Of a stretch of DNA of 64,000 bases, positions 13,523-35,724 are shown piece by piece (position 1 is the first letter of the stretch; the number at the start of each line of letters is the position of its first letter). The notes beneath the pieces were generated by a model. The model was given only the letters and a program-made list of their open reading frames with translations, searched no databases and had not been told where the DNA came from. The translations under genes were made by a program, and so were the position numbers. Source of the DNA: Desulfobacterales bacterium (GTDB taxonomy: Bacteria > Desulfobacterota > Desulfobulbia > Desulfobulbales > BM004); assembly GCA_021647905.1 (NCBI GenBank), contig JAKITW010000003.1, positions 3,503-67,502 on the forward strand. Reading direction: 5' to 3'.

Positions 13523-14386
13523 ATGCATCACCCTTCACGGTTTAAAAATATCATGTCCACAAGCAGAGCGCTTCCCACCTCCATGGCCCTGAGCATTGCC
13601 GGTTCCGACCCCTCGGGCGGGGCCGGGATCCAGGCCGATCTGAAGACTTTTTGCATGGTCGGGGTATACGGCGGCGCGGTGATCACCTGTCTCACCGCCC
13701 AGAACACCAGGGGAGTCGCCTCATATCGCCCGGTGGACCCGGAATTGGTGGGCCAACAGATCAAGCTGGTGCTGCAGGACCTGCCGGTCAGCCATATCAA
13801 GATCGGCATGGTCGGCACCGGAGAGATTGCCATCCATATCGGCGCGGCCCTGGAAAACTTCAGCGGTGAAATTGTCTGTGATCCGGTGCTGGCCGCCACC
13901 TCCGGCCTGAGCCTGCTCAAGGAATCGGCCCGGGCGGCCTACCGTGACCAAATCCTTGCCCGGGCCACGGTGTTGATCCCCAACCTTGAAGAGTTATCCC
14001 TGCTGGCGGAACGATCCTGCGCAAACCCGGCCGGGGAGATCGCCGCCGGCAGGATACTTTTCGACCGTTTCCCGCGGCTGCGCTCTATTGTTATCAAGGG
14101 AGGCCATCGGCCGGACGACGATCCGATAATCGACCGGCTGCTGGTCCGCCGGCCCGGCGGCGCGGTGGAAATCACGGCCAGAAGCCATCCCCGGGTCCGT
14201 TCCAGAAACACCCACGGCACCGGCTGCACCATGGCCGCGGCCTTTACCGCCCATCACCTGCTCGAAAACGACGACTCCATTGCCTTTGATAAGAGCGTGC
14301 ATTTCATGGACCATCTCCTGACCGTCAGCGAACCGTCCCGTCTGGGACACGGCATCGGCCCCCTGCTCCACCATCTGGCCAGGTGA
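13523..14386 (+). CDS. thiD: Hydroxymethylpyrimidine/phosphomethylpyrimidine kinase
   Basis: [25 protein letters not shown] and GTGCT motifs. The true start may be 13553 or 13583, since no clear RBS is visible. Confidence 0.85.
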
Positions 14387-14445
14387 GCGACTGCAAGGAG
14401 ACTCCGAAACGGGTTCGGTGCCGGTGAGAGCTTGCCGGCGTTCAG

Positions 14446-14649
14446 CTATTCCATCATCCGGATGTTGCCGCAATCCGGACAGATCCAGGTCGGGCCGTTG
14501 CTGATGCCCCACTTGTTTTCCTTGAAACAGGTGTCGCAGATCTGGAAGCCGCAGGGACAACTCCAGCAGAAGGGTTGTTTTTTCTGACAGCAAGAGCACT
14601 GAAACTCCTTGCGGCGACGCCTTGTTTTTTTTCCTTCCTGCCCGCCCAT
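14446..14649 (-). CDS. Small Cys-rich zinc-ribbon-like protein
   Basis: 67 aa with a basic N-terminus and 10 Cys (CSCC...CWSCPC...CDTC...CPDC). Begins 3 nt after the cutA stop. Confidence 0.5.
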   Translation of the reverse strand: MGGQEGKKTRRRRKEFQCSCCQKKQPFCWSCPCGFQICDTCFKENKWGISNGPTWICPDCGNIRMME

Positions 14650-14652
14650 ATG

Positions 14653-14982
14653 CTACGATGTCTCCTTGACAATCTCTTGATCCAGCCATTGCAGGTAACT
14701 GGCAGACCCGGCCGTTATCTCCACAGCCACTATTTCCGGGACCTCGTAGGGATGGATCGCACCAATGGCCTCGCGGACCGCCTCGAAAGATCCCTGCCTG
14801 GTCTTGGCAATGCATAAAAACTCTTCCGCCTCCTGCACCGCGCCCTGCCAGCGGTAGATACTGGTCATCGGGCCGATGATCTGCACACAGGCGGCCAGCT
14901 TTTGTTCCACCAGCCGCCCGGCGATCCGGGTGCCGTCCTCTTTACTCTCCACCGTGGTCATCACCTGTATGTATCCGGTCAT
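14653..14982 (-). CDS. cutA: Divalent-cation tolerance protein CutA
   Basis: 109 aa. LAACVQIIGPMTSIYRWQGAVQEAEE...HPYEVPEI is the classic CutA1 pattern. Confidence 0.85.
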   Translation of the reverse strand: MTGYIQVMTTVESKEDGTRIAGRLVEQKLAACVQIIGPMTSIYRWQGAVQEAEEFLCIAKTRQGSFEAVREAIGAIHPYEVPEIVAVEITAGSASYLQWLDQEIVKETS

Positions 14983-15006
14983 TGTCCTTCTCCATTATTT
15001 ATACGG

Positions 15007-17154
15007 TTACAACAATCGTCCATGGTAGTTGAAGGTAGATGCTGGCTTCCCTCCCCTTCCCCCTTGCAGTTCCCTGGCCAGGTTATTGAAAAAATTACGG
15101 TCGCGTTTGAGATAGGAGAGATCAACCACTCCATAGTCGAGTCCCATGGCCCCTAGCTCGGGCAACTGGGCCAGCAGGGAAAAAGGGCGGTCCGGCAGGG
15201 CCAGGGTCGCGCCCCAGCGCTGGACAAGTTCGTACGCCTCGCCCCTGGGGCTGACGAACCGGGCCTGGTAGCGGAAATGTTCCGCCCGCAGCCGGGCGGT
15301 GAACAGCGGAATCCGGCCGAACACGGTCATCCCCGGGGCCACTGCCGGCTTGCCGCCCTGGTGGCGGCAGATATCAGCAAGCGTTTTCTTGTCGACCTCA
15401 ACCGCGATCTGGGCCCGCTGAAAACCGTTTTTTCCAAGCGCGGCCAGGGCAGCCGAGTTGAGCACGTTAAGGGTATAATCCCCGATCAGCCGCACATCCT
15501 TGATGTGGTTGAGCAAAAGCGTCTGACTGATATGACCGACCTGCCAGGATGTAAAACCGGCCCGGCCCATGAAGTCAATCGCCCGGCCGTAGAAGTCAAG
15601 GTCCTGCTCCAGGATGACCGGCGGCAGGGCCCAGATCAGCCGACGGCGCAGAGAGGCCAGTTTCCGGCCCATCTTTTCGGCCTGAGCAAAGGTCTCACGG
15701 CCCAAGGTGACCAGCACCTGTTCCGGCTTAAAGGGCAGCCGTTGGTTCAATCCCTGCATGGTATCAAGTTTGAGCCACAAAGGAAGAGTACCCTTCGAAC
15801 GCCGCGGTTGCCGGGAGGATGGCGCCGGGCCCAGGGATGCAAGCACCGCTGCCACCTGTTTTCGATCCAGGAGCCGGGCTGTTTTCTTTTTAAACGGCCC
15901 GGGATCGATCAACCGCTGCCTTCTTTCCAGGGCTCTGCCCTGCCTGGTATCCACCAGATAGACCGGATCGCCGCTCTTCACCGGCTGTGGACAGTCAATG
16001 GTGATACGCTCGCCGGCGGTCGCGGTTTTAATTCCCGACCCGTTGGCCGCCTGGATCTTTTTCAGGGTAAACGAGAACCGCTCGCCGCTCTTTTCCCGGT
16101 GGACCCGCAGCCGGTCGCCCGCCTGGATGACCGCCCGGGTCATAAGCTGAGGCCGGCCCTGGCGCAGCCTTTCCACCTTGCCGAGAAAAACGCCGATATT
16201 TCCGGAATGATGCGGGGAAATAATATCGCGGGACTGGGGATTTTTAAAATAACCGGTGCAGGCGCGGCGGCCCATGGACAGGTCGAGCAGTTCCCGGGCC
16301 CGGGCCAGCGCCGCTCCCCGGTCACCGGGCCCGGCATCAAGCATGGTGCGGTAGGCCTTGACCACCGAACCGACATGGTGGGCGTTTCGCAACCTGCCCT
16401 CGATCTTGAGCGAGGTGACCCCGGCCCTGGCAAGCTCCGGCAGCAGCTCAACGGCTGCGAGATCATTCATCGAAAAGAAATAACCGCCCGGCTGGTTGCC
16501 CTTTTTCCGGCCCCGGTTCTCCCAGGTATATCGTCTGCGGCAGGGCTGGACGCAGAACCCGCGCAGGCCGCTCCTGCCGCCCAGTGAACTGCTGAAAAGG
16601 CAGAGTCCGGAATAAGCGAAACAGAGCGCCCCATGGACGAACACCTCCAGTTCAACCGGTGTTTGCCGGTGGATCGCCGCGATTTCCTTGATACATAGTT
16701 CCCGGGCCAGCACCACCCGTTTAAACCCCAGGTCGCTGCATTTTTTGACCCCCAGCGAGTTATGGGCCAGAAACAGGGTGCTGGCGTGGAGGCGCAGCCC
16801 CGGGAAATGGTTCCTGGCCAGGGAATAGACGCCCAGGTCCTGAACAATTACCGCATCCGCCTTCAGGCTGGACAGACGGGCCAGGGTCTCGACCGCGAGG
16901 GGGATCTCCTCCTCCTTGACCAGGCTGTTCATCGCCACGTACAGCTTCACCCGGCGGGAGCGGGCAAAATCAACAAGCGCGGCCAGTTCGGCCCAGGTGA
17001 AATCGCGGCTCAGGGCCCGGGCGTTCAGGGCCGGCGCGCCGATGTAAACCGCATCGGCGCCGGACTCCACCGCAACCTCAAAAACGGCCAGGGTGCCGGC
17101 CGGGGCCAGCAGTTCCATCTTTTTCCCGGGTTGTTGTTCCATGTCCTGCGTCAT
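15007..17154 (-). CDS. U32-family peptidase (long form)
   Basis: MELLAPAG...GADAVYIG...KLYVAMN...GVTSLKIEGR motifs. Start trimmed to ATG 17154, which overlaps the rhomboid stop (ATGA). Confidence 0.8.
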   Translation of the reverse strand: MTQDMEQQPGKKMELLAPAGTLAVFEVAVESGADAVYIGAPALNARALSRDFTWAELAALVDFARSRRVKLYVAMNSLVKEEEIPLAVETLARLSSLKADAVIVQDLGVYSLARNHFPGLRLHASTLFLAHNSLGVKKCSDLGFKRVVLARELCIKEIAAIHRQTPVELEVFVHGALCFAYSGLCLFSSSLGGRSGLRGFCVQPCRRRYTWENRGRKKGNQPGGYFFSMNDLAAVELLPELARAGVTSLKIEGRLRNAHHVGSVVKAYRTMLDAGPGDRGAALARARELLDLSMGRRACTGYFKNPQSRDIISPHHSGNIGVFLGKVERLRQGRPQLMTRAVIQAGDRLRVHREKSGERFSFTLKKIQAANGSGIKTATAGERITIDCPQPVKSGDPVYLVDTRQGRALERRQRLIDPGPFKKKTARLLDRKQVAAVLASLGPAPSSRQPRRSKGTLPLWLKLDTMQGLNQRLPFKPEQVLVTLGRETFAQAEKMGRKLASLRRRLIWALPPVILEQDLDFYGRAIDFMGRAGFTSWQVGHISQTLLLNHIKDVRLIGDYTLNVLNSAALAALGKNGFQRAQIAVEVDKKTLADICRHQGGKPAVAPGMTVFGRIPLFTARLRAEHFRYQARFVSPRGEAYELVQRWGATLALPDRPFSLLAQLPELGAMGLDYGVVDLSYLKRDRNFFNNLARELQGGRGGKPASTFNYHGRLL

Positions 17155-22106: not shown

Positions 22107-25007
22107 CTACCAGAAAACGTTGCCGAGTGTTTTCTTTATTTTCAGGCTGCCGTTTTCAATGGCCACCATTTCATTAACAGCAAAGGACTCCTCATGGGTC
22201 AGATCCTGATCAAGGATATAGCCGGTCACCTTGGCGGTGTAACTGATGCTGACCTCGGTGGTGTGGTGGAGCGGACCGTTTTCCAGATTGCTGATCCGAT
22301 ATTCGATCCGGTCAAATGCATCAAAGGAGTTGGCAAGGGATTCTTCCAGGTCGGTGAGATCGCTGCCGTCCGCCGATGACCAGTCATCGGCAAGCAGCCG
22401 CAGCACCCCGGTCAGGTTACGGTTGCTGTATTCCCGGGCAAATTCCCCGTACAGCGCCTCAATCATTTCCCTGGTTATATATTGGGCCTTTTCGGTTTGA
22501 CCGGCTGGTTGCGGGCCAGACGTTTCCCGGGGTCGGTTCGGGCTCAGACCGAACATTGTCGGCCACTGGCCCTGGATTTCGTCCATCTGCTTTTTGAATT
22601 TTGCAAACTCTTCATACAGGTTCGGCCGATAGTTTTTCAACGGACCCATCCCGGGGTGAAAATCCGCATATTTTCTGGAAAAGGGCAGAAGATAGGCAAC
22701 CGCCTTGTTTTTCACTTCAGGGAAGAGCACCGGAATCGGGTTGTAGTTGTCAACCGGCAACACCCTTAACCCGGTGTATTGGTCCAGGAACTTTTCACCC
22801 TTCTGAAAGGCGCTGATGAATTTTGCAACCTCGCCTTTATTAAGAGCGACAAGTTTTTTATACCAGTCCTGCCTGGCGATTTTAACCATTCTGTCGACCA
22901 TCACCGGTTGCAACAGGCCGCCGCCCTGCCAGGCATCGATCAGTTCCCGCAGGGATTTCATGGTAAAGGAAATATTTATGTTTCGCTGGTCAAGTGTGTA
23001 TTCAAAAGAGTTTTTCAGCTGATATATATGCCAGTACCTGTCGAGTTCAGGCAGGAGCAGCCTGGCTTCCTCGCTGGCCTTATCGTAAATTCGGTTGTTA
23101 AGGAACCTGAGGTTTATCTCGTCGTTAAAAGCGGCAAATTTACGGGCATGATGCTGAATGTCGGATTCAAGCCGGGTCAGGGAAGTCCGGTACTGGTCAA
23201 GCAGAAGCTGGTTTTCTGTCAGGGCTCTCTGGAGTCGCGCCATTGAGTCCATCACCGCTGTCACCTCGTTACTGCCGGCGCCGGCCAGGTTCATGGTCTC
23301 ATTGATCAATTCCTCCGCAGTGTTAAGAATAACATCAACATCCCGGGAAGCCCGTTGAATATTCCGTTCCCATTGCGATTTTTTTTCCGCGGCATATTGA
23401 ACGACCCGGTCCAGTTCGTTTTCAACCTCGCTGATTGCGGCGGCGGCATTGTTCAGGGCCCCGCCGTTGTTTGCTTGAATCCCTGCCTCATAATTCAGAT
23501 AGACATAGCCGAACAAGGCCATGGAGTAATTATCAATGATGCGCTGGTCCGGGTTTTCCGGGATGGCCAGATCGTTCTGGCCGGCATAAAAATTTTCCTG
23601 GGGATTGAGATCATTAAAATCAGGGAGTGCATCCTTTTTGATTTCCAGAGCGGTATTCCGGAGTTGATCCTGGAATTTTTTTAATTTCGCGATTGCCTGA
23701 TTCCTTCGCCCGGCAGCGCTTTCATAGGCCGGCAATACTTCTTCATGCCAGCTCTTGTACAAGGCCTGCTGTTTGCGGAAAACGGATTTTATGGCATCAT
23801 TATAGAATATTACAACGGTATCAAGGCAGACCGGGTCATACACATACCCCTTGTAGGGTATCCGCGGAGGTTCCGGGGGCACGGCCAGGAATGGCCGGGC
23901 CAGGGTGGTATAGTAGCTCCAGTCGATGGTGCCGTTATAAATACCGATATTGGCTTCACGGAAATTTGCCAGTTGAGCAATATTTGTTTTTTGATAATTC
24001 TCCAGCTTATCGAGTAATCGCCGGTAGAGCAGACCCTGAAGGCGTCTGGTTTGTTGCGCCGGGTCGATATTGACACATCCGGGCCGCACCGTGGGCAGTT
24101 GCCCCGGTTGCCGCGTTCCCGTATCATTCTGTTGGGGTTCAGCAGGCCCGTCATGTTTTCCCTGGACTGCCGGCGCCTTTTTATTCGGCCGGCCGGGAGC
24201 GGCGCCGGATAAGGAGGTCCGCAGGGATTGCGTTACGCTCAGTTTGTCGGCAGCGGATTTTTTCAACAGTTGTTGATATTGACGGGTGGCAAAATAATAG
24301 TATGACCGTTTTTTGTCCCGGGCCCGGGCCTGGAGTTTTTTGACCTGGTCATGATACTTGCGGTATTTGAGGGCCAGGTCCAAGGTCTTGGCCCACATTT
24401 CATCCTTTAACCGGTCCACCCATTTTTTTCTGTCGAGCCAGGGTTTGGTGGCAGTGATCGCCTTCTGGTTTTCGGGAAATTCAAACCACTCGTTAAATTG
24501 ACGCGCCAGTTGGCCGATGTTGGCGAAATTCCCGTTTCCCTGGCGCCATTGATTTACCCGGGGCAAGAGGAAGTTTTTTATAAAGTATTGGCGGCTCTGG
24601 TCCTCGGCCCAGCGTTGAACCTCGGTATAAGAACCCTTGGCAAAATCCCAGGCCCAGGTGATGGCGCCGGCGCCGCTGCCCAGCACCGCCTTGAGCAGCA
24701 TTCCGGCGACCTGTTCACCGGCCAGGTTTCTGGCCTTGTCCGCCTCACCGTTTGCACAGTGATCAATAATCTGGAGATAGGTTGTGACATCCGCCTCGCC
24801 CAAGGCCCCGCTGGAAACCTTGTTCAACTCGGCATCAAGATGTTCTTTCAGCCTTTTTTCAAGTTCCTTCCTGATCTCCTGGTTGGTAATGGTCGCGGGA
24901 ATATACTGGCTGATTCCACTGGGAGCAAGGGAGATCGCCCCGGCCGAACCGGCGGCTGCCAGGGTCGTCAGGAGTATGAATGGAAGAAGAATATTCCTTA
25001 CGCGCAT
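22107..25007 (-). CDS. Large exported protein (966 aa), apparently helix-rich, unknown function, with a C-terminal module resembling an NTF2-like fold by eye
   Basis: Start placed at ATG 25007, giving the signal peptide MRVRNILLPFILLTTLAAAGSAGA. Long charged stretches suggest helical regions, which I have not predicted formally. I recognise no family. By eye it is more AT-rich than its neighbours. Confidence 0.6.
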   Translation of the reverse strand: MRVRNILLPFILLTTLAAAGSAGAISLAPSGISQYIPATITNQEIRKELEKRLKEHLDAELNKVSSGALGEADVTTYLQIIDHCANGEADKARNLAGEQVAGMLLKAVLGSGAGAITWAWDFAKGSYTEVQRWAEDQSRQYFIKNFLLPRVNQWRQGNGNFANIGQLARQFNEWFEFPENQKAITATKPWLDRKKWVDRLKDEMWAKTLDLALKYRKYHDQVKKLQARARDKKRSYYYFATRQYQQLLKKSAADKLSVTQSLRTSLSGAAPGRPNKKAPAVQGKHDGPAEPQQNDTGTRQPGQLPTVRPGCVNIDPAQQTRRLQGLLYRRLLDKLENYQKTNIAQLANFREANIGIYNGTIDWSYYTTLARPFLAVPPEPPRIPYKGYVYDPVCLDTVVIFYNDAIKSVFRKQQALYKSWHEEVLPAYESAAGRRNQAIAKLKKFQDQLRNTALEIKKDALPDFNDLNPQENFYAGQNDLAIPENPDQRIIDNYSMALFGYVYLNYEAGIQANNGGALNNAAAAISEVENELDRVVQYAAEKKSQWERNIQRASRDVDVILNTAEELINETMNLAGAGSNEVTAVMDSMARLQRALTENQLLLDQYRTSLTRLESDIQHHARKFAAFNDEINLRFLNNRIYDKASEEARLLLPELDRYWHIYQLKNSFEYTLDQRNINISFTMKSLRELIDAWQGGGLLQPVMVDRMVKIARQDWYKKLVALNKGEVAKFISAFQKGEKFLDQYTGLRVLPVDNYNPIPVLFPEVKNKAVAYLLPFSRKYADFHPGMGPLKNYRPNLYEEFAKFKKQMDEIQGQWPTMFGLSPNRPRETSGPQPAGQTEKAQYITREMIEALYGEFAREYSNRNLTGVLRLLADDWSSADGSDLTDLEESLANSFDAFDRIEYRISNLENGPLHHTTEVSISYTAKVTGYILDQDLTHEESFAVNEMVAIENGSLKIKKTLGNVFW

Positions 25008-25142
25008 GTTTTTCCCCGCGCTGTCAGCTTTTTTTATATCAAAGCCGCCACGAACGTACTGCCCAGCCATGCCGGGGTGACGCCCTTCATTGTTTGGATT
25101 ATGGCCAGCGGATATGGTCCGGCCATGCTCCATGCTGGTCAA

Positions 25143-25586
25143 TCAAAAAAACCGGTCCCCTTTTACCTGCAGGATCCGGAAGCTGTCGCCTGCCGGCTTG
25201 AGCAGGATCTCGCTCTGGCCTGAACGCTTATGAGGGTTGCCCCGGCGATCCAGGTAGGACATCTGCCAGCGGACACTGGCATTGAGCAGGCCGTCGCTTT
25301 CAAGCACCTTGTTGACCATGAACCGGATGTCCACCAGATTTTCATTGCGCCAGCGGTTCTCCAGCCGCTGCCGCAGTTCCTCATACCCCTCGTAATAGCC
25401 AGGGGAAAAGAAATCGCGGACCTTGTCCCAGGTCTCCAGCTTAAGCCCCTGTTCCAGGCCCTGGAGCTGGTTTTCAACCGCGGATTTGCGGTTGTCGCTG
25501 GCCCAGGGCGTACCGGCACAGGCAGCCAGGCTGAAAACAAAAAGGAGCAAGGCGGGCAAGACAAAAAAATTGTGGTTTAACTTCAC
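25143..25586 (-). CDS. Small lipoprotein, possibly NTF2-like
   Basis: GTG 25586 follows GGGAGGG. The lipobox is LFVFSLAAC. The body WDKVRDFFSPGYYEGYEELRQRLENRW...VRWQMSYLD resembles the module seen in the two neighbouring proteins. Confidence 0.55.
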   Translation of the reverse strand: MKLNHNFFVLPALLLFVFSLAACAGTPWASDNRKSAVENQLQGLEQGLKLETWDKVRDFFSPGYYEGYEELRQRLENRWRNENLVDIRFMVNKVLESDGLLNASVRWQMSYLDRRGNPHKRSGQSEILLKPAGDSFRILQVKGDRFF

Positions 25587-25674
25587 GGCAGACCCTCCCG
25601 AAGTGATCAACAGGTGAAGAAAAAGGCCGGACCCCATCAACGGGGCCCGGCCGGCACGATGAACCGGACAGCAA

Positions 25675-26937
25675 TTACGGCCCGGAAACCGGATATTTAT
25701 AATTAATAACACAGGTCAAGGGTGCGTTTAACTGATCAACCTCAACTATCGCATAGGTGCCGTTGCCAAGCTTGACGGCAAAGGTGCTGCCGGTGGTGGC
25801 CGGGGCCGGGTTGAACTGATCGTACGGCCCGGCCGGGGCCTGGGTGGCGGTGTCAAAGGAGTTGTTCGCCATGGCGACCCAGGAGGCGTTGTTGTTCATG
25901 AAAAAAATGTTGGTTTCAAAAATAATATCACCGTCCCAGGCGCCGAGGGCGCCGGTGGCCAGAAAAATGCCCTGGCCATTATCCAGGGTGGCGGTTTCCG
26001 CGGAGCCGCCGCCGCTCTCCGTGTCGTCGCCCTGTTCGGCCAGGCCGCAGTCACCGTCATTGTTGCAGCCCAGGACCTCGCTGCCGATTGATTCTTCGGT
26101 AACATTGGTAGCCACGTCGCCCGGATTGGAAACCCCGAAGATCAGGGGGGCGGCCATCTCGGAGAGCAGAAAACCGCTGCCCCGGGCAAAGGTCATGGAA
26201 GAGGCGGCGCTGTCCTTGAGCAGTTGACCGCTTTTTGCCACCTGAACCTGGCGGTTGAAGGTGAAGTACAGTTCATAGTTACCGTCAAAGGGGACGATCC
26301 TGGTGATGTTCGGCTCGATCCTGATATTATCGAAGAACAGAAAATCATCGGAAACGGCGTCTTCCAGGGCCGCGAGATCGCCTTCAAAATCCGGGTGGAC
26401 CAACCGCATGAAGCCAGCCTGGTCTTCCGCCATGTAGAGGCGCAGCAGTTCGTTGAACACGGTCTTGACATTATCGGTATTAGGCATGTCGCCCACCAGA
26501 AAGGTGAAACTGTGGTCTTCCAGGTCACTGGCTTTGCCGGCAGTGGATAAGGCCTTGATCCGGAAATCATATTCCCGCTCAAGCTCCGGCTTGAACTCCA
26601 GGGTGAACATGCCCCGGTCGCCCAGGACCGCCTTTTGCCAGGTCTCGCCGCCGTCAAGGCTTATTTCAACCTTGCCGATGACCCCTTGGCCCAGTTCGGC
26701 CTGGCCGCGGATGATGAGTTCGCCGCTGACCAGGTCTTCCCTGGCCAGGGTGATCCGCTCGTCAACGTTTTCAACACTGACGGAGTTGAATCTGATGCTG
26801 GTGAATTCCGGGGTGTTGTCCTGCCTGCCGAAATCCCACCATTTGGCCTCGCCAGGGGTGGCGGTCAGCAGCATGACGCCCATGTAAAAGGCGGCAAGGA
26901 GCAGGATAAAACCTTTTTTATCTATTCTGTTATCCAT
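25675..26937 (-). CDS. Exported 420-aa protein of unknown function
   Basis: N-terminal signal/anchor sequence. A central stretch VKTVFNELLRLYMAEDQAGFMRLVHPDFEGDLAALEDAVSDDF...YELYFTF recalls the lipoprotein module. The C-terminal third is Gly/Asn/Asp-rich. Confidence 0.6.
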   Translation of the reverse strand: MDNRIDKKGFILLLAAFYMGVMLLTATPGEAKWWDFGRQDNTPEFTSIRFNSVSVENVDERITLAREDLVSGELIIRGQAELGQGVIGKVEISLDGGETWQKAVLGDRGMFTLEFKPELEREYDFRIKALSTAGKASDLEDHSFTFLVGDMPNTDNVKTVFNELLRLYMAEDQAGFMRLVHPDFEGDLAALEDAVSDDFLFFDNIRIEPNITRIVPFDGNYELYFTFNRQVQVAKSGQLLKDSAASSMTFARGSGFLLSEMAAPLIFGVSNPGDVATNVTEESIGSEVLGCNNDGDCGLAEQGDDTESGGGSAETATLDNGQGIFLATGALGAWDGDIIFETNIFFMNNNASWVAMANNSFDTATQAPAGPYDQFNPAPATTGSTFAVKLGNGTYAIVEVDQLNAPLTCVINYKYPVSGP

Positions 26938-26943
26938 GATTGA

Positions 26944-28572
26944 TTACCCCTCCCTTTTCTCAAAGCTGTACCGGAACATGATTTTAACAATATCTTCCCG
27001 GTATTCTTTTGTTTTGTCGTCAAAGTCAAAATTATTTCTGGTCCCTTCCATCCGGATACTGCCCTTTTTGAGCCAGTCGGGCCGCAGTTCACAGTAGACG
27101 CTCAACTTGGTGCGGGTCGAATCATTGCCAAGGGTCGACAGGTCATTGACCACCCGCTCCGCATTCAGGCCGAAGCGCAGGAATTTCTCATAGGTGCCGC
27201 CCAGGTTGAACCTGAGGGTGGTTGTGTAGTCACTGCCGTTGGTGGTCAGATTGTCCCTTTCCTGCAGCCCGGCGACGAACCGGGGCCGCAACTCAAGCCG
27301 GCCGTCCTTGAAGCGATGCCGGGACGAAAGGCTAAGGTTGTAAAAATAGTTGCTGGAGGAAGCGCCGCCGGCAGTGGTGTCGTTATCAATGATTTTTTCG
27401 ATGTCCGCATTGACCCGCAGGACCTTGGCCAGCCGGTCGGAGACAGCGAGCTTGATCCGGTCCGAGGTTGATTCACGGCTGTTGTCATCGGTGTCGGTCC
27501 ACTTGCGGCGGGTTGACAGCGAGATCTTCAGGCTGCGCCGGTTAAAGGCCCGTTTGCGTTTGACGCCGACCTCGCCGGTAACGTTGGTGGTGGTGGTCAG
27601 GGCAAGGTTGTCCGCCAGGTTGTTCCTGGAATGATCGAACATCCCGAACACGCTCCAGCGATTGTTGAGCTTGGCGTCCGCCTTGGTATAGATCCGCTGC
27701 CGGTCCGGGGTGGCGCCGCCGCCCAGGGTGGTGAAGTCGGTGCTCACCCTCTCAAACCTGCCCCGCAGCTTGACCACGCCGAGCCGGGTTTTAAGCCCCA
27801 GCCGGTGGGCGGTGCCGGTGGTTTCGGTCCTGGCGCCGCCGCTGGTGGTCATGGTGGTATTGCTGTAGGCATGTTCGCCGCTCAGCCTTAAACGGTCCCG
27901 CCGGTATTCCCAGTCCAGGGCGGGCACTGTATTGATGTAGGCATTCTCGGTGGTCCGGTTCGGGTCGCCATCGTCATCCCTCACATAACCGAGATTCAGG
28001 CCGACCCGGTAGTTGTCCCGGGCATGCTGGAAACGGATACCGCCGCCGAACCGGTCCATGGGCTCGCCGGTCGGCGTCTTGTAGAGGTATTCCCACTGGC
28101 TGTCAAAGATGCCATAGCCGACCCGGATATAGTTTTCCTTGTCCCTGAGATTGAGCTGGGCGCCCAGACCCTTGACGGATTTATTCATGGAGTATTGGGA
28201 CAGGTTGATAAAATGATCGCCGAGATTGAGCTGGACCTTGTCCTTGACGAGCTTGAGGCTCAGTTTCTCAATGGAGGCGTTTTCCGGATCGAACTGGTCG
28301 TTGTCGGTCAACCGGAAATTAAAATTCAGAATAGAATCCCAGCCGTTGTCAAAACTGTTCCTTGCCCTGATGTCCGTCTCGTGCAGGTAATGGCCGCCCT
28401 CCACATAAAAACTGGCAGCCTTGCCCGGACCGGAGATGCTGTAGCTGATCAACTCGGTGCGGTTATTGATTTTTATCTGATTTGACGCGGCCAGGGTCGG
28501 ATCCGGGCCGGCCGCCAGCAGAAAAATCGAACCAAGAACCCCCCCCCAGGAGATCTTCTTGCAGTCCATCAT
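26944..28572 (-). CDS. Outer-membrane beta-barrel protein
   Basis: Signal peptide ending TLAAS, alternating amphipathic strands throughout, and an aromatic-rich C-terminal strand (VKIMFRYSF). Confidence 0.65.
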   Translation of the reverse strand: MMDCKKISWGGVLGSIFLLAAGPDPTLAASNQIKINNRTELISYSISGPGKAASFYVEGGHYLHETDIRARNSFDNGWDSILNFNFRLTDNDQFDPENASIEKLSLKLVKDKVQLNLGDHFINLSQYSMNKSVKGLGAQLNLRDKENYIRVGYGIFDSQWEYLYKTPTGEPMDRFGGGIRFQHARDNYRVGLNLGYVRDDDGDPNRTTENAYINTVPALDWEYRRDRLRLSGEHAYSNTTMTTSGGARTETTGTAHRLGLKTRLGVVKLRGRFERVSTDFTTLGGGATPDRQRIYTKADAKLNNRWSVFGMFDHSRNNLADNLALTTTTNVTGEVGVKRKRAFNRRSLKISLSTRRKWTDTDDNSRESTSDRIKLAVSDRLAKVLRVNADIEKIIDNDTTAGGASSSNYFYNLSLSSRHRFKDGRLELRPRFVAGLQERDNLTTNGSDYTTTLRFNLGGTYEKFLRFGLNAERVVNDLSTLGNDSTRTKLSVYCELRPDWLKKGSIRMEGTRNNFDFDDKTKEYREDIVKIMFRYSFEKREG

Positions 28573-28974
28573 AATGCTTTCTCCTTAATTAGATTGAAAT
28601 TTCCGATAACAAGTCTCTCCATCAACAATAAATATGACCCGATTATTTTTTCACAAGCCCTGATCTTGAACAAAACTGGTCAGTTCTGGACAGACACTAC
28701 CTCTTCGGGGCACCCCCGTCAATGCCAAACGTCCGCTTTTCGGCCCAGCAGACGCAACCGCTGCCTTGTAAGACCGGGCCCTTTTCGTTGGTCGATCAGA
28801 CCCGTTACGGTTCGTTCCGCAAAGCTCTTGAAGGGCGGGATTTATCTCAACAAAGAGGCAAAATACTTTTTGATGCGGCACCCGGGCGATCTTTTGCTTG
28901 TGCTTGTTCTCCAGGGCTTGCTATGGTTTATTAGCGGGCCGCACCGGTCTGCAAACACATGGTCTCAAGGGGGT

Positions 28975-30117
28975 ATGGGCATGGGAACGAACAACCTGAT
29001 CTTTCTGGAAGTCATCGAATGGTTTGATGATTCGGGCAAGGAAATCACCCACCGCATTCCGGAACAGGGCTCCGGCGAGATCAAATACGGGGCCCAGCTC
29101 ACTGTCCGTGACAGCCAGGCCGCGGTGTTTTTCTATCAGGGCAAGGCCTGCGAGGCGTTCGGGCCCGGTCGCCACACCTTGAAAACCGCCAACATCCCGA
29201 TCCTGACCAAGATCGTTGCCCTGCCCTGGGCCATGACCAGCCCCTTGCGGGCCGAGGTCTATTTTGCCAACATGAAGGTGTTCCCCAACCTGAAATGGGG
29301 AACCCGCGACCCGGTGGCTTTCAAGGATTCCGAACTCGGCCTGATCCGGCTCCGGGCCCATGGCATGTTCAATATCCAGGTGGTGCAGCCGATCCTGTTT
29401 ATCAACACCCTGGTGGGCACCATGGGCCGGTTTACCACCCGGGAAATCGAGGAGTATCTCAAGCGGGTGATTGTCTCCCGGTTCAACGACCATCTCGGCG
29501 AACATCTTGACAGCCTTCTCAACCTGCCGGGCAGGTACGACGAGCTGGCCGACGGCTTACAAAAAAGACTGGCAGAGGACTTCAGCCATTTCGGCATCAA
29601 GCTCCACGAATTGTATATCACCTCCATCACCCCGCCGGCCGACGTACAAAAAGCCATTGACGACAAGAGCCGGCTCGGGGTTTTCGATGACCTCGACCGG
29701 TTGATGAAACTGAAAGCGGCCGCAGCCATGGAAAAGGCGGCCGAGTCCAGCGGCGAGGCCGGTTCCGGCCTGGGAATGGGGTTGGGGTTCATGATGCCCT
29801 CGATGTTTGCCCAATCCATGCAGCCGGCCGCTGATTCAAACAAGCCGGAGCCACCGGCTGCCGCTGAAAACAACTGCCCGGACTGCCGCCACGCCATGCC
29901 GGTGGATTCGCGCTTCTGCCCCTACTGCGGCCACCAGCAGGTGGTCTTTCAGCAATGTGCCCACTGCGGCAAGAATCTGGCCGCCAACGCCAGATTCTGT
30001 TCCAGATGCGGCCGGCCCGCCGATGCCAGGCCGGCCCCGCTCTTCTGCCCCGAATGCGGGGCCGAAAACCTGCCCGGCGCGGTATTCTGCAACCAGTGCG
30101 GCGAATCGATGAAGTAA
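28975..30117 (+). CDS. SPFH/Band-7 domain protein with C-terminal zinc ribbons (YdjI/COG4260-like)
   Basis: Start at ATG 28975 after AAGGGGG. LIFLEVIEWFDDSG...AVFFYQGK...EVYFANMKVFPNLKWGT matches the so-called virion core protein-like SPFH family. The tail has CPDC..CPYC, CAHC..CSRC and CPEC..CNQC. Confidence 0.75.
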   Translation: MGMGTNNLIFLEVIEWFDDSGKEITHRIPEQGSGEIKYGAQLTVRDSQAAVFFYQGKACEAFGPGRHTLKTANIPILTKIVALPWAMTSPLRAEVYFANMKVFPNLKWGTRDPVAFKDSELGLIRLRAHGMFNIQVVQPILFINTLVGTMGRFTTREIEEYLKRVIVSRFNDHLGEHLDSLLNLPGRYDELADGLQKRLAEDFSHFGIKLHELYITSITPPADVQKAIDDKSRLGVFDDLDRLMKLKAAAAMEKAAESSGEAGSGLGMGLGFMMPSMFAQSMQPAADSNKPEPPAAAENNCPDCRHAMPVDSRFCPYCGHQQVVFQQCAHCGKNLAANARFCSRCGRPADARPAPLFCPECGAENLPGAVFCNQCGESMK

Positions 30118-30121
30118 GAAA

Positions 30122-30268
30122 GAGGTTACAGGTGTCAGGTTTCGGGTGTCAGTATCAAGAGATTTTTTTGTTACGAGGAGGTTTCATTAATAACGAATAT
30201 AACACGGCCCAAGCCCGTTCCCGATGACCAGGCAAACCCTGATACCTGAAACCCGATACCTGTAACCT
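30122..30268. repeat. 30-nt inverted heptamer arrays flanking an 87-bp spacer (MITE-like or intercistronic stem)
   Basis: aggttacaggtgtcaggtttcgggtgtcag (30122-30151) pairs with the reverse complement of ctgatacctgaaacccgatacctgtaacct (30239-30268), with about 26 of 30 positions matching. It fills the entire gap between the SPFH stop and the next ATG. Confidence 0.7.
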
Positions 30269-30273
30269 GAATA

Positions 30274-31497
30274 ATGCCCTATCGCCTTGAACAGGAATGC
30301 CCGCAGTGCAGCGCTCCTCTGGAGATAGAGGATACCGACCGGCTGATTTCCTGCTCCTTCTGCGGGGTGTCCAGTTACCTGGCCAATCCGGAAAAATGCC
30401 GGCTGGTGCTGCCGGCCAGGGATGCCGGCAAAACAAACCTCCATGTCCCCTATCTGCATTTCAAGGGGGCGGTGTATGGTTGCGATCAGCAGTCGGTCAA
30501 GTTCCGGCTGGCCGACACCACCAGGCTGGCGATATCACTGCCCCTTGTGCCGTCATCGCTGGGGGTCCGGCCCCAGGCCATGAAGATGCGCTATTACAGC
30601 CCGGCCCAGGGCAGCGTGCTCATAAAAAACACCCTGACCTGGAAAAAGGTGCTGGCCACCATGGTTCCTCCGCCAATACCCAGAAAAAAATGTTTGCACC
30701 AGGTTGCCATCGGCGAGGCGCTCAATGTCATCTACCTGCCCTTGACATTAAAAGACACCACCCTCTACGACGCGATACTGGACCGGCCCCTGGGCACAGT
30801 GGCCAGGGGATGGGACGCAATTGGCCCCCAGGTGCAAAGCAGGGCCGGCTGGCAGCCCAGGTTTCTGGCCAGCCTCTGCCCCCACTGCGGCTGGAACCTG
30901 CACGGCGCCCGGGACAGCGTGGTCCTCTTCTGCGATCACTGCAATTCGGCCTGGACCGCCGGCAACAACCGGCTGACCCGGGTCCCTTTTGTTGTTCAGG
31001 CCAGCAATAAAAACTCCCTCTACCTGCCCTTCTGGCAGATCCTGGCCACAGCGCCCGGGCCGGTTGCGATCGACTCCTTTGCCGACTTTATCCGGATTAC
31101 CAACCAGCCGCTGGTGGTCCGGCCGGGCTGGAAGAAACAGCCGATGCGTTTTTATGCGCCCGCCTTCAAGATCCGGCCCAAGAGTTTTTTGAGACTGGCC
31201 ACCCGGGCAACCGTTTCCCAGACCAGATTCACCTTAACCGGGGCGGATATGGCGGATATCGATCTGCACCCGGTCACCCTGCCCGGAAGCGAGGCGATCC
31301 AGGCCTTGAAGATCATCCTGGCCAACTCGGCCCTGACCAGGAAAAACATCTTTCCATTTCTGCCCGAAATCCGCTTTTCGGTCCAGCAGGCGCAACTGGC
31401 GCTGCTGCCCTTCAGCGCATCCAGCCATGAGTTCATCCAGGAACAGTCCGGCATCACCGTAAACCGGAACAGCTTGCGATTCGGCCGTGGTCTTTGA
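30274..31497 (+). CDS. Double zinc-ribbon protein of unknown function
   Basis: Two modules each open with CPxC...CxxC (CPQCSAPL..CSFCG at the N-terminus and CPHCGWNL..CDHCNS mid-protein). I recognise no other domain. Confidence 0.6.
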   Translation: MPYRLEQECPQCSAPLEIEDTDRLISCSFCGVSSYLANPEKCRLVLPARDAGKTNLHVPYLHFKGAVYGCDQQSVKFRLADTTRLAISLPLVPSSLGVRPQAMKMRYYSPAQGSVLIKNTLTWKKVLATMVPPPIPRKKCLHQVAIGEALNVIYLPLTLKDTTLYDAILDRPLGTVARGWDAIGPQVQSRAGWQPRFLASLCPHCGWNLHGARDSVVLFCDHCNSAWTAGNNRLTRVPFVVQASNKNSLYLPFWQILATAPGPVAIDSFADFIRITNQPLVVRPGWKKQPMRFYAPAFKIRPKSFLRLATRATVSQTRFTLTGADMADIDLHPVTLPGSEAIQALKIILANSALTRKNIFPFLPEIRFSVQQAQLALLPFSASSHEFIQEQSGITVNRNSLRFGRGL

Positions 31498-31643
31498 TAA
31501 TGTCCAGAGGTCCGAAACGGACGAAGATGAGGTGCTGGTGAACTTGTACGAACAGGGAAGCGAACCTGGTGAGACTCCGAAAAGACCATTCCCGGATGGG
31601 CACCAAACAACAAAATGCGGGCTCCACGGGTGAAGGTTGCGGA

Positions 31644-32438
31644 ATGAACCATTCTATTCACCGGGCCCTGTATTACCTGCGCGTACTTGGTTTCCGTGGT
31701 CTGCTTTCCGCCGTCAGATCAAAGCTGTTGAACAGGCCGGCCCTGCTGAAATCAACCAGGCCCGGGATCAGGTTTCCTTTCTATATCAGGATGCTGGCCT
31801 CGGACGTCTCGGTATACGACCAGATATTCATTCTCCGGGAGTATGATTTCGAGACCCGGAAGGAACCGGCCGTGATAATCGATGCCGGCGCAAACAGCGG
31901 GCTTACCTCGATCTGGTTTGCCAACCGGTTCCCGGATTCAAGGATCATTGCCATTGAGCCGGAAAAAAACAACTTTGCAATACTTAAGAAAAATATTGCC
32001 CCATATAACAACATCACTCCTGTGCATGGGGCATTATGGGACGAAAACAAGGAAATCACCCTGGTTGATCCCGGCCTGGGCACAATGGGATATATGACCC
32101 GAAACAATGCAGCCACTGCGGAAAAAATTCCTGGCAAGTCACTTTACCGGGTCAAGGGGATGACCATTGACCGGATCATGGCTGAACAGGGGATCGAATT
32201 CATAGATATCCTCAAAATAGACATCGAGGGAGCGGAAAAAGAGGTCTTCCAGGACCCGGCACCCTGGATTGACAAGGTGGGCGCCTTGATCATCGAAACC
32301 CACGAACGGATGAAACCGGGTTGTAATCATAATGTACTCAATGCTACAAAAGATTTTAACGATAAGTGGTCGCAAGGAAACAGTGTATATCTGAGCCGAA
32401 CCAATGGATGCCTGAAAAGGGGCATCACCCGGCCATGA
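31644..32438 (+). CDS. FkbM-family SAM-dependent methyltransferase
   Basis: VIIDAGANSGLTS, IIAIEPEKNNF and DILKIDIEGAEKEV motifs. Start chosen at ATG 31644. Confidence 0.75.
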   Translation: MNHSIHRALYYLRVLGFRGLLSAVRSKLLNRPALLKSTRPGIRFPFYIRMLASDVSVYDQIFILREYDFETRKEPAVIIDAGANSGLTSIWFANRFPDSRIIAIEPEKNNFAILKKNIAPYNNITPVHGALWDENKEITLVDPGLGTMGYMTRNNAATAEKIPGKSLYRVKGMTIDRIMAEQGIEFIDILKIDIEGAEKEVFQDPAPWIDKVGALIIETHERMKPGCNHNVLNATKDFNDKWSQGNSVYLSRTNGCLKRGITRP

Positions 32439-34812: not shown

Positions 34813-35724
34813 CTATTCCGCTGTTTTCCTGCCAGGCCGGAAATGGCAGCCGATACACCTGGCAATCGGACCGATCCGGCCCTGGTCGGCCATTTTCCGG
34901 TGACAGCCCTTGCACAAGGAGTGGCCGGCCAGCTTCAGGCTGTTGAGACTCTTGTTGCCCATCTCGGAGTTATGGCAGCTCACACAGGCAAGTATCCTCA
35001 TCTCCGGTTCATAGGGGAGCTGTTTCCCGTTCTCATCCATGCCGTGATGACATTCTTTGCATTCAAGAAACTGCTGGTGCTTCTGGTGGGGAAACAGGGT
35101 CGGCTGCCGGGCGGATAGATTCTGGATAACGATCATCTCCAGCCCGTGGCCGCTGTCCGTGCGCTCAACCACGATCTGTTCCCGGCGGAAATCCGCCTTA
35201 ACGACCCAGGTCTCCCGGGCCGCGACGGTAATCGCTTTCTCAAGCACCTGGTCGCCAAGGACAAATCTGACCGTATGTTCACCGGGGCCAAGGTTGTGGA
35301 CCTGTTTGTCACCCCTGCCGATCTCCTTGCCGTCAAGTGAAATCCGGGCATGCAGGGGCAAGGAACGAAGCACCAGGTCACCGCTGTCACCGCGGCTGAT
35401 CAGCAGCAGCACCTTGCGGTTGATATCCTCCACCGTTGTTGATTCATCAAAGTCAAGGACCACCTCCAGGGTACGGCCGTTCTTGATCGCCACGTTTCCG
35501 GTCAGAATTTTGCCGCGGTTTTTCGCCTTGAAGTTATACTCCCCGCCTTCGAGGTCCTCGATATAGAGACCGGCTGCCCCCAGCTTGCCCTGGAGCTGAC
35601 CACTGAGCCAGACCTGGGTACCCGGCGGCCCGACAACCTGCAGGTCGCCGCCGGCCGCAGCCGGCCCGGCAACCATTGCGGTCATGATCATCCAGAGCCA
35701 GAAGAAAGAATGGTATTTTTTCAC
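34813..35724 (-). CDS. Exported protein with PEGA-like beta-sandwich region(s) fused to a tetraheme cytochrome c3-type domain
   Basis: Signal peptide, then repeated motifs of PEGA style (VWLSGQ.., ISLDGKEIG). The C-terminus carries four CxxCH sites (CKECH, CVSCH, CKGCH, CIGCH). Confidence 0.7.
   Translation of the reverse strand: MKKYHSFFWLWMIMTAMVAGPAAAGGDLQVVGPPGTQVWLSGQLQGKLGAAGLYIEDLEGGEYNFKAKNRGKILTGNVAIKNGRTLEVVLDFDESTTVEDINRKVLLLISRGDSGDLVLRSLPLHARISLDGKEIGRGDKQVHNLGPGEHTVRFVLGDQVLEKAITVAARETWVVKADFRREQIVVERTDSGHGLEMIVIQNLSARQPTLFPHQKHQQFLECKECHHGMDENGKQLPYEPEMRILACVSCHNSEMGNKSLNSLKLAGHSLCKGCHRKMADQGRIGPIARCIGCHFRPGRKTAE

Follow-up and report, generated by a model that had tools for sequence, protein, structure and literature searches.

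A modelled 26-strand outer-membrane barrel, its constant exported partner and a shared NTF2-like module in a four-gene envelope cluster of a Desulfobacterales bacterium

To our knowledge, very large outer-membrane barrels are rare, and each one that is understood (LptD, MtrB and the ushers) has defined a major envelope process. MtrB encloses MtrA in a sheath of 26 strands, with MtrC docking on the outer side, and LptD has the same number of strands (PMC7198977). We analyzed a cluster of four genes in a 64,000-nucleotide stretch of contig JAKITW010000003.1 from a Desulfobacterales bacterium (GCA_021647905.1), hereafter called the window. The cluster adds a further, modelled 26-strand barrel family, here with a constant partner of unprecedented domain make-up and with accessory proteins that share one module with that partner. 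We tentatively read the cluster as a self-contained outer-membrane complex of an undescribed kind that anchors or displays large, variable proteins, and we give this reading somewhat less than an even chance.

The four genes lie on the minus strand at positions 22107-28572 of the window in the order OMP (outer-membrane protein), P420, LIPO and BIG, and the listing of open reading frames (ORFs) agrees exactly with an earlier note, made from the sequence alone, that had described four co-directional genes here. The genes are as follows.

OMP, 26944-28572, minus strand: 542 aa, predicted signal peptide, modelled 26-stranded beta-barrel.
P420, 25675-26937, minus strand: 420-aa predicted exported partner, whose start lies 6 nt past the OMP stop codon.
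LIPO, 25143-25586, minus strand: predicted 147-aa lipoprotein, whose entire mature part is one NTF2-like module (copy 2).
BIG, 22107-25007, minus strand: 966 aa counted from MRVRN, predicted signal peptide, fast-evolving, GC content below that of its neighbors.

The public annotation of this metagenome-assembled genome (L3J03_00900 to L3J03_00915) gives the same four lengths, and BIG in the NCBI call (P0001) is likewise 966 aa long. Judged by inspection, the N-termini of all four proteins are Sec-like, with basic, then hydrophobic, then small residues. Pfam and NCBIfam searches assigned no family to any of the four proteins; the sole match over a curated threshold was Mo-co_dimer in P420 (E 6.8e-5, 23.4 bits against a cut-off of 22.7 bits). 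PADLOC and PHROGs searches of the cluster returned nothing, and an anti-phage defense role or a phage origin was rejected on this basis. The statement in the earlier note that no characterized system has this composition agrees with our Pfam, NCBIfam, PDB-sequence, PADLOC and PHROGs searches, none of which found one.

The structure of OMP was modelled with AlphaFold from a 35-sequence alignment, and the model (predicted local distance difference test, pLDDT, of 89.6) is a barrel of 26 beta-strands. The barrel starts at residue 28, right behind the signal peptide, and the model has no plug, periplasmic or extra domain. All loops in the model are 18 residues or shorter, the two longest having 18 and 14 residues, and therefore the barrel cannot close or plug itself. 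The top match in a Foldseek search of solved structures was 6r2q_B, which is MtrB in the Mtr complex (E 1e-12, TMq 0.57), followed by the 24-strand ushers FimD and PapC and by Deinococcus SlpA. The model and its top match support the beta-barrel assigned to this gene from sequence alone. The OMP family, represented by 36 homologue clusters, gave no match at E<=10 when its profile was compared with all PDB sequences, and the resemblance of the modelled barrel to MtrB is one of fold only. Conservation was 0.65 at lumen-facing strand positions vs. 0.52 at lipid-facing positions, and charged residues occupied 68 of 177 lumen-facing positions, the facing being an approximation that combines simple hydrophobicity phasing with the standard rule of topology. 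Several putative outer loops, for example STDFTTLGGGATPD, were among the most conserved segments of the protein. The conservation of the lumen and the outer loops fits a fixed protein partner.

The gene that accompanies OMP in all loci examined is P420. A scan of species-representative genomes detected 20 cluster loci, with hosts among the Gallionellaceae, Hydrogenophilales, Rhodocyclales, Thiobacillus and Rhodoferax, in Mariprofundus ferrooxydans PV-1 and a second Zetaproteobacterium, and in Desulfatibacillaceae and Omnitrophota. P420 adjoins OMP in all 20 genome loci and in seven of the seven metagenome loci where OMP was recovered. These loci with both genes, about 27 in number, come from Desulfobacterota, Beta-, Gamma- and Zetaproteobacteria and Omnitrophota, and P420 directly follows OMP in every locus with downstream sequence, with a 4-nt gene overlap in locus L005. 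A check of cluster conservation had been proposed with the earlier note, and the gene set does recur across several phyla in both genome and metagenome loci. The Desulfatibacillaceae carry the OMP-P420 pair without BIG or LIPO (L005, 13204-16771; L006, 9723-14149), directly upstream of lptF, lptG, a Kdo-transferase-like gene (waaA) and lpxK, which are genes of lipopolysaccharide transport and synthesis. Because this lineage carries the pair alone, OMP and P420 are the invariant core, and BIG and LIPO are frequent accessories.

Comparison with the described systems places the core closest in architecture to the MtrCAB conduit. The two share a 26-stranded barrel with short periplasmic turns, MtrB being the best solved structural match of OMP; in both, the barrel gene adjoins a gene for an exported partner and is accompanied in the cluster by genes for a lipoprotein and a large exported protein but by none for an inner-membrane component. 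They differ in that OMP, which had no Pfam or NCBIfam match at E<=1, has no sequence similarity to MtrB or MtrB_PioB in Pfam and PDB profile searches, and in that the partner here is built of Ig-like, NTF2-like and beta-domains rather than being a cytochrome, with accessories linked to it by a shared module. The four proteins and the 19 P420, 18 BIG and 14 LIPO homologues contained no CxxCH or CxxxCH motif, and a porin-cytochrome conduit was ruled out by this absence of heme motifs from the families. With LptD-LptE, the cluster shares a 26-strand barrel that has to be filled by another protein, a small lipoprotein of the outer membrane in the set and, in the Desulfatibacillaceae only, the proximity to lptF, lptG, waaA and lpxK. 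In contrast to LptD, OMP has no N-terminal beta-jellyroll; several loci lack the lipoprotein, while the partner, which is not a lipoprotein, is always present, and none of the four proteins matched the OstA, LptD or LptE families in Pfam, LIPO being NTF2-like instead. Slam/type XI and two-partner secretion resemble the cluster in having an outer-membrane barrel beside exported substrates, no inner-membrane energizer, and recognition of the substrates through a conserved terminal domain. Their barrels have 14-16 strands, however, vs. 26 in OMP, the conserved domain here is NTF2-like and also occurs in the partner, and no DUF560, TPR, POTRA or TPS domain was matched by Pfam in the four proteins.

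The AlphaFold model of P420 (pLDDT 90.0, 62 sequences) consists of a signal helix and three domains.

P420 Ig-like (E-set) domain, 26491-26808, minus strand: residues 44-149, with an Asp-box, SLDGGETW.
P420 NTF2/SnoaL-like module (copy 1), 26149-26481, minus strand: residues 153-263, assigned from the model, Foldseek and hhalign.
P420 C-terminal all-beta domain, 25678-26079, minus strand: residues 287-420 (287-418 in the model), weakly HmuY-like.

The homologues of P420 fall into 64 clusters, and one distant homologue is annotated as Elusimicrobia. The Ig-like domain resembles the dimerization domain of sulfite oxidase (Foldseek E 3e-6), with a PDB profile match to SorT (E 2.7e-5), and 30 of 62 family members matched Mo-co_dimer. 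When the profile is compared with the PDB, the last ~90 residues of P420 line up with the C-terminal strands of 6eu8 and 8b6a, both HmuY-like proteins, at the far end of each chain. The alignment is marginal, with a whole-sequence E of 1.9e-4, per-stretch values of 5e-3 to 9e-3 and 0.038 for 3h8t, and Pfam HmuY matched neither P420 nor its family. Residues 287-420 contain no histidine, and the family has no invariant histidine or methionine. The resemblance to HmuY thus lacks the His-His pair, and no HmuR-type TonB-dependent receptor accompanies it; heme binding by this domain is not supported.

A module shared by the three exported proteins ties the accessories to the core. Profile-profile alignment with hhalign joined LIPO to the P420 module with 97.0% probability (E 1.1e-10, 109 columns) and the P420 module to the C-terminus of BIG with 96.8% probability (E 2.5e-10, 102 columns). 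LIPO and BIG aligned weakly (21.5% probability, E 1e-3) yet end to end. All 19 P420 homologues were matched in one region (residues ~150-260) by a hidden Markov model (HMM) built from LIPO only. The E values were 7e-9 to 5e-6 for 16 of these homologues, 2e-4 to 5e-3 for the P420 of the window and two others, and 0.56, the weakest, for that of locus L026. In BIG homologues the P420 HMM matched the C-terminus (4e-6 to 6e-2), and the profile positions involved were the same every time. BLASTP linked only P420 157-251 with BIG 849-943 (E 4e-4) and linked LIPO to neither protein; the similarity of the modules is therefore remote, though well above chance. The three segments quoted in the earlier note are present, and hhalign aligned them to one another; together with the matches across families, the alignments substantiate its proposal, made by eye, that the three exported proteins contain one module. 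No further module-bearing ORFs were found in the window or the related loci.

The fold of the module was also as suggested there, namely NTF2/SnoaL-like. In the model of P420, residues 153-263 form three helices followed by four long strands, and Foldseek matched this segment to the NTF2-fold structures 3rob and 3hx8 (TM 0.72-0.73, root-mean-square deviation 2.2-3.4) and also to NTF2 domains of Pgp2, Bd1075 and RsgI9. The fold was modelled for the P420 copy, and the LIPO and BIG copies were assigned to it by sequence. Each of the three families contains members with weak but independent matches to NTF2-like Pfam families: SnoaL_3 in 8 of 62 P420 family members (5.5e-5), SnoaL_2 in 4 of 14 LIPO homologues (1e-3), and DUF4440 in 3 of 17 BIG modules (6e-6), with SnoaL_3 and CaMKII_AD matches also among the BIG modules. 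The P420, LIPO and BIG modules of the window itself had no NTF2-clan Pfam match, none reaching the gathering threshold. NTF2-like domains are known as oligomerization and targeting domains. The likeness to the NTF2-like superfamily (SnoaL, DUF4440, ketosteroid-isomerase-like proteins and the CaMKII hub) lies in the fold of the shared module; the difference lies in its context here, a C-terminal tag on giant exported proteins combined with a lipoprotein and a barrel partner, which is not described for that superfamily.

LIPO begins with a GTG start codon 7 nt past a GGGAGGG ribosome-binding site. Its lipobox is L-A-A-C, and the cysteine, predicted to be acylated, is kept in 13 of 14 homologues. 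The residue at +2 is alanine, the usual signal for the inner leaflet of the outer membrane in Escherichia coli. The sequence of LIPO matched nothing meaningful in the PDB; a match to 7unh was dismissed because it falls in the signal-peptide/helix region of a designed protein. Between P420 and LIPO lies the following element.

Intrinsic-terminator-like hairpin, 25615-25652, minus strand: between P420 and LIPO.

In the hairpin, 10 of the 12 base pairs of the stem are G-C; the loop is 4 nt long, and the tail reads TTTTTCTTCA. An equivalent hairpin with a different loop sequence occurs at the same place in the orthologous locus of a related genome, L001 (9447-9476). Because a terminator-like hairpin follows P420 and is kept in L001, LIPO and BIG are probably expressed at a lower level, by read-through, and the hairpin would probably act as an attenuator that sets the ratio of core to accessory proteins. 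The single four-gene operon of the earlier note thus stands as far as the shared direction of the genes is concerned, but its unity does not, since the hairpin splits the cluster into two tiers.

BIG is the least constant protein of the cluster, and three of its segments can be delimited.

BIG N-terminal domain, 24258-24890, minus strand: residues ~40-250.
BIG Pro/Gly/Gln-rich linker, 24078-24215, minus strand: residues ~265-310, the site of length differences between orthologues.
BIG C-terminal NTF2-like module (copy 3), 22110-22475, minus strand: residues 845-966, preceded by a Pro/Gly-rich linker.

Across taxa, BIG proteins can be aligned only over the last ~120 residues, that is, over the module. 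A word-indexed search of a 5.8-billion-protein collection detected only two close, full-length relatives, one of which sits in the same four-gene arrangement in L001. An exhaustive HMMER search of 1.84 billion cluster representatives detected 377 relatives; most were matched by way of the C-terminal module, and 254 had E<=1e-10. Among the best 149 of these 377, 131 carry the module (median length 1063 aa) and 18 share only the N-terminal domain (residues ~40-250). The module lies at most 12 residues from the C-terminus in all 131 module-bearing relatives. The module-less proteins are 1200-1480 aa long with the shared domain at their N-terminus, and some of them carry CBM96 or DUF4214. BIG had weak matches to coiled-coil proteins and nothing meaningful when its sequence was compared with the PDB.

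The divergence of BIG is also evident between close relatives. Identity to L001 is 86% for transketolase, 80% for OMP, 84% for P420 and 83% for LIPO, and for BIG it is 59% overall, 59% in the middle region and 75% in the module. The GC content of BIG is 0.521, with 0.617 at third codon positions (GC3), vs. a GC of 0.57 and GC3 of 0.73-0.77 in the other three genes. The earlier note had called the largest gene more AT-rich than its neighbors, which the GC values bear out, and had seen in this a hint of horizontal acquisition, which they do not: the syntenic orthologue in L001 has the same GC offset, which argues against recent horizontal transfer of BIG alone, and such a transfer was rejected. 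A Methyltransf_21-type gene at 31569-32438 (plus strand) has a GC of 0.505 and GC3 of 0.597, as low as BIG, so low GC is not unique to BIG in this neighborhood. The composition and divergence of BIG fit a weakly constrained, mosaic, fast-evolving gene.

The arrangement of the accessory genes follows a pattern in most loci, in which the core is followed by an exported helical protein of ~200 aa, then by one to three BIG-type proteins (~900-1300 aa) and then by LIPO. The lineage of the window is without the small helical gene, and there LIPO precedes BIG. When a metagenome scan was seeded in the reverse direction, with the BIG module alone, it detected 13 loci, and OMP and P420 were present in every one with enough flanking sequence. 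One locus (L030, 957-6164) encodes a 1735-aa protein that ends in three tandem modules (residues 1330-1443, 1471-1584 and 1612-1729) and that adjoins LIPO and another module-bearing protein of 1230 aa. The three tandem modules fit docking by avidity. No inner-membrane transporter or ATPase recurred among the neighbors of the cluster, whose flanks are heterogeneous.

We propose that P420 would fill or cap the lumen of OMP, by analogy with MtrA in MtrB or LptE in LptD, because the membrane would be breached by a 26-strand barrel with nothing inside it. The NTF2-like modules would act as homotypic docking domains that tie LIPO and BIG to the OMP-P420 core, and the complex so formed would anchor or display large, variable and probably helical proteins at the outer membrane. 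With no conserved inner-membrane or ATPase component, the complex would depend for its assembly on Sec, Lol and BAM only; the hairpin after P420 would hold the accessories below the core in abundance. Several observations weigh against this proposal. The Foldseek match to MtrB is modest (TM 0.57, 11% identity), and ushers and porins score too. The homology of LIPO and BIG is only transitive as judged from their profiles, and what points to helicity in BIG is a set of weak coiled-coil matches. NTF2-like domains can also be enzymes or ligand binders, and a pocket could be formed by the polar residues that are invariant in the BIG module (D, E, N, H and Y). P420 keeps its NTF2 domain in loci without LIPO and BIG, and therefore the domain has some role beyond docking them. 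Finally, the placement of P420, NTF2-NTF2 docking and surface exposure are all inferred features.

The same evidence was weighed against four other explanations. That four unrelated envelope genes adjoin by chance and resemble one another coincidentally could be argued from the failure of BLASTP to link LIPO with P420 and BIG and from the terminator between P420 and LIPO, which leaves the genes as two pairs; however, the set is found again in other phyla, profile-profile probabilities reach 97%, and a search that starts from the cargo module recovers OMP and P420, so that coincidence is effectively excluded. A dedicated outer-membrane secretion system, with OMP and P420 as the translocon and the C-terminal module as a sorting signal for the export of BIG and LIPO to the cell surface, would have its nearest parallels in Slam/type XI and two-partner secretion. 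It would explain why all 131 module-bearing relatives have the module at their extreme C-terminus, with highly variable cargo ahead of it. It would also account for the several cargo paralogues (one to three) per locus, for cargo genes that always adjoin those of OMP and P420, and for the extracellular-type CBM96 and DUF4214 domains of module-less proteins that have the BIG N-terminal domain, and it would suit the wide lumen and the lack of a conserved inner-membrane component. The module is internal in P420 and makes up the whole of LIPO, however, which fits a docking domain better than a signal, and a secretion signal would not usually come as three tandem modules in one protein. Pfam detected no translocon signature such as POTRA or DUF560, and export of BIG beyond the periplasm would be a supposition. 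We consider such a secretion system possible though unlikely. The larger claim that it would carry, of a new secretion type without an inner-membrane energy source and with a threaded P420 in at least three phyla (possibly including Elusimicrobia), is in our view doubtful to the same degree.

The remaining two explanations appear less probable than secretion. OMP might be a channel for the uptake or release of a small hydrophobic or metal-containing compound, with the NTF2-like pockets and the HmuY-like domain as ligand carriers that pass it to OMP or receive it from OMP. NTF2-like folds often enclose hydrophobic ligands, the module matches SnoaL and DUF4440 families, the BIG module has invariant polar residues, the C-terminal domain of P420 resembles hemophore-type HmuY proteins, and many hosts are iron or sulfur lithotrophs (Gallionellaceae, Zetaproteobacteria and Thiobacillus). 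Against this, the HmuY-like domain is without histidine, its family is without invariant histidine or methionine and there is no Pfam HmuY match; TonB-dependent features and a conserved inner-membrane transporter are lacking, and the lumen of a 26-strand barrel is far larger than a small molecule needs. A channel would leave the 1000-aa variable proteins unexplained, and we regard it as quite improbable. Slightly less probable still is an envelope tether or spacer comparable to SlpA and OmpM, in which the OMP complex would anchor a long, helical, periplasmic BIG and the modules would bind peptidoglycan, so that the outer membrane is joined to the cell wall. The Foldseek matches to the NTF2 domains of Pgp2 and Bd1075, both of them cell-shape proteins of the periplasm, the match of OMP to Deinococcus SlpA, the weak coiled-coil-type matches of BIG and the alanine at +2 of LIPO are consistent with a tether. 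However, no SLH, OmpA-like, LysM or other known wall-binding domain was matched by Pfam, and the patchy, accessory distribution and fast evolution of BIG would be unexpected in a tether with a basic structural role.

Pfam and NCBIfam have no model for any of the four families, and the cluster offers a handle on many hypothetical proteins in environmentally important bacteria of the iron, sulfur and sulfate cycles. The rule that emerges is that hundreds of giant proteins that are unrelated in other respects are linked to a barrel through an NTF2-like module at their C-terminus. If P420 sits in the barrel and the modules dock, the complex would correspond to a heme-free Mtr architecture that serves to display proteins. 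Should the module instead be a sorting signal, the cluster would represent a new secretion route.

A fifth gene recurs in the cluster outside the lineage of the window. It encodes the poorly conserved exported helical protein, ~200-240 aa long, and lies immediately upstream of the BIG genes, which it often overlaps by 4 nt; two subfamilies were distinguished. Fusion of this protein into the N-terminal domain of the window's BIG was considered and rejected (hhalign probability 0.1%). The genes for the helical protein were located at the following positions.

L009, 12894-13547: helical-protein gene.
L003, 16231-16932: helical-protein gene.
L015, 7960-8643 and 12516-13250: helical-protein genes.
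L021, 12892-13491: helical-protein gene.

In L021, the locus of Mariprofundus ferrooxydans PV-1, the BIG-type gene (13528-16656), which comes after OMP, P420 and the helical-protein gene, is split among six or more short ORFs on the plus strand; an antisense ORF of 952 aa spans the region, and LIPO is missing downstream. The broken gene could be a pseudogene or could reflect sequencing errors in an old draft assembly. In some Betaproteobacteria, chemotaxis genes follow the cluster, either a methyl-accepting chemotaxis protein with a CZB zinc-binding domain or CheR-CheD-CheB, at these positions.

L008, 17768-19219: chemotaxis genes following the cluster.
L009, 19181-20629: chemotaxis genes following the cluster.
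L010, 17719-19167: chemotaxis genes following the cluster.
L014, 16054-18769: chemotaxis genes following the cluster.

The chemotaxis genes occur in a few related Betaproteobacteria only and may represent local synteny.

Among the hosts of loci L007-L026, lithotrophs from settings rich in iron and sulfur predominate (Gallionellaceae, Zetaproteobacteria, Thiobacillus, Hydrogenophilales and Rhodoferax), which may reflect biology or sampling bias. The sfz/sfb stalk-formation cluster of iron oxidizers encodes BcsB-like, GT2, GH10 and CotH proteins (PMC8250860). Many hosts are stalk-forming or related iron oxidizers, and the sfz cluster was therefore checked and ruled out, since no such domains occur here.

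Upstream of OMP, no match to a sigma-54 promoter was found near 28573-28980, and matches across the window were at chance level. Adjoining the cluster on the plus strand (28594-31497) is a conserved gene pair, one gene encoding a Band_7/zinc-ribbon protein and the other a protein of 407 aa whose function is unknown. In a relative, L002 (3411-5775), the same pair lies inverted on the other side of BIG, which points to a local rearrangement. About 6 kb from the cluster, just past the transketolase gene, a 303-aa ORF with four CxxCH motifs (34813-35724, minus strand) probably encodes a tetraheme c-type cytochrome.

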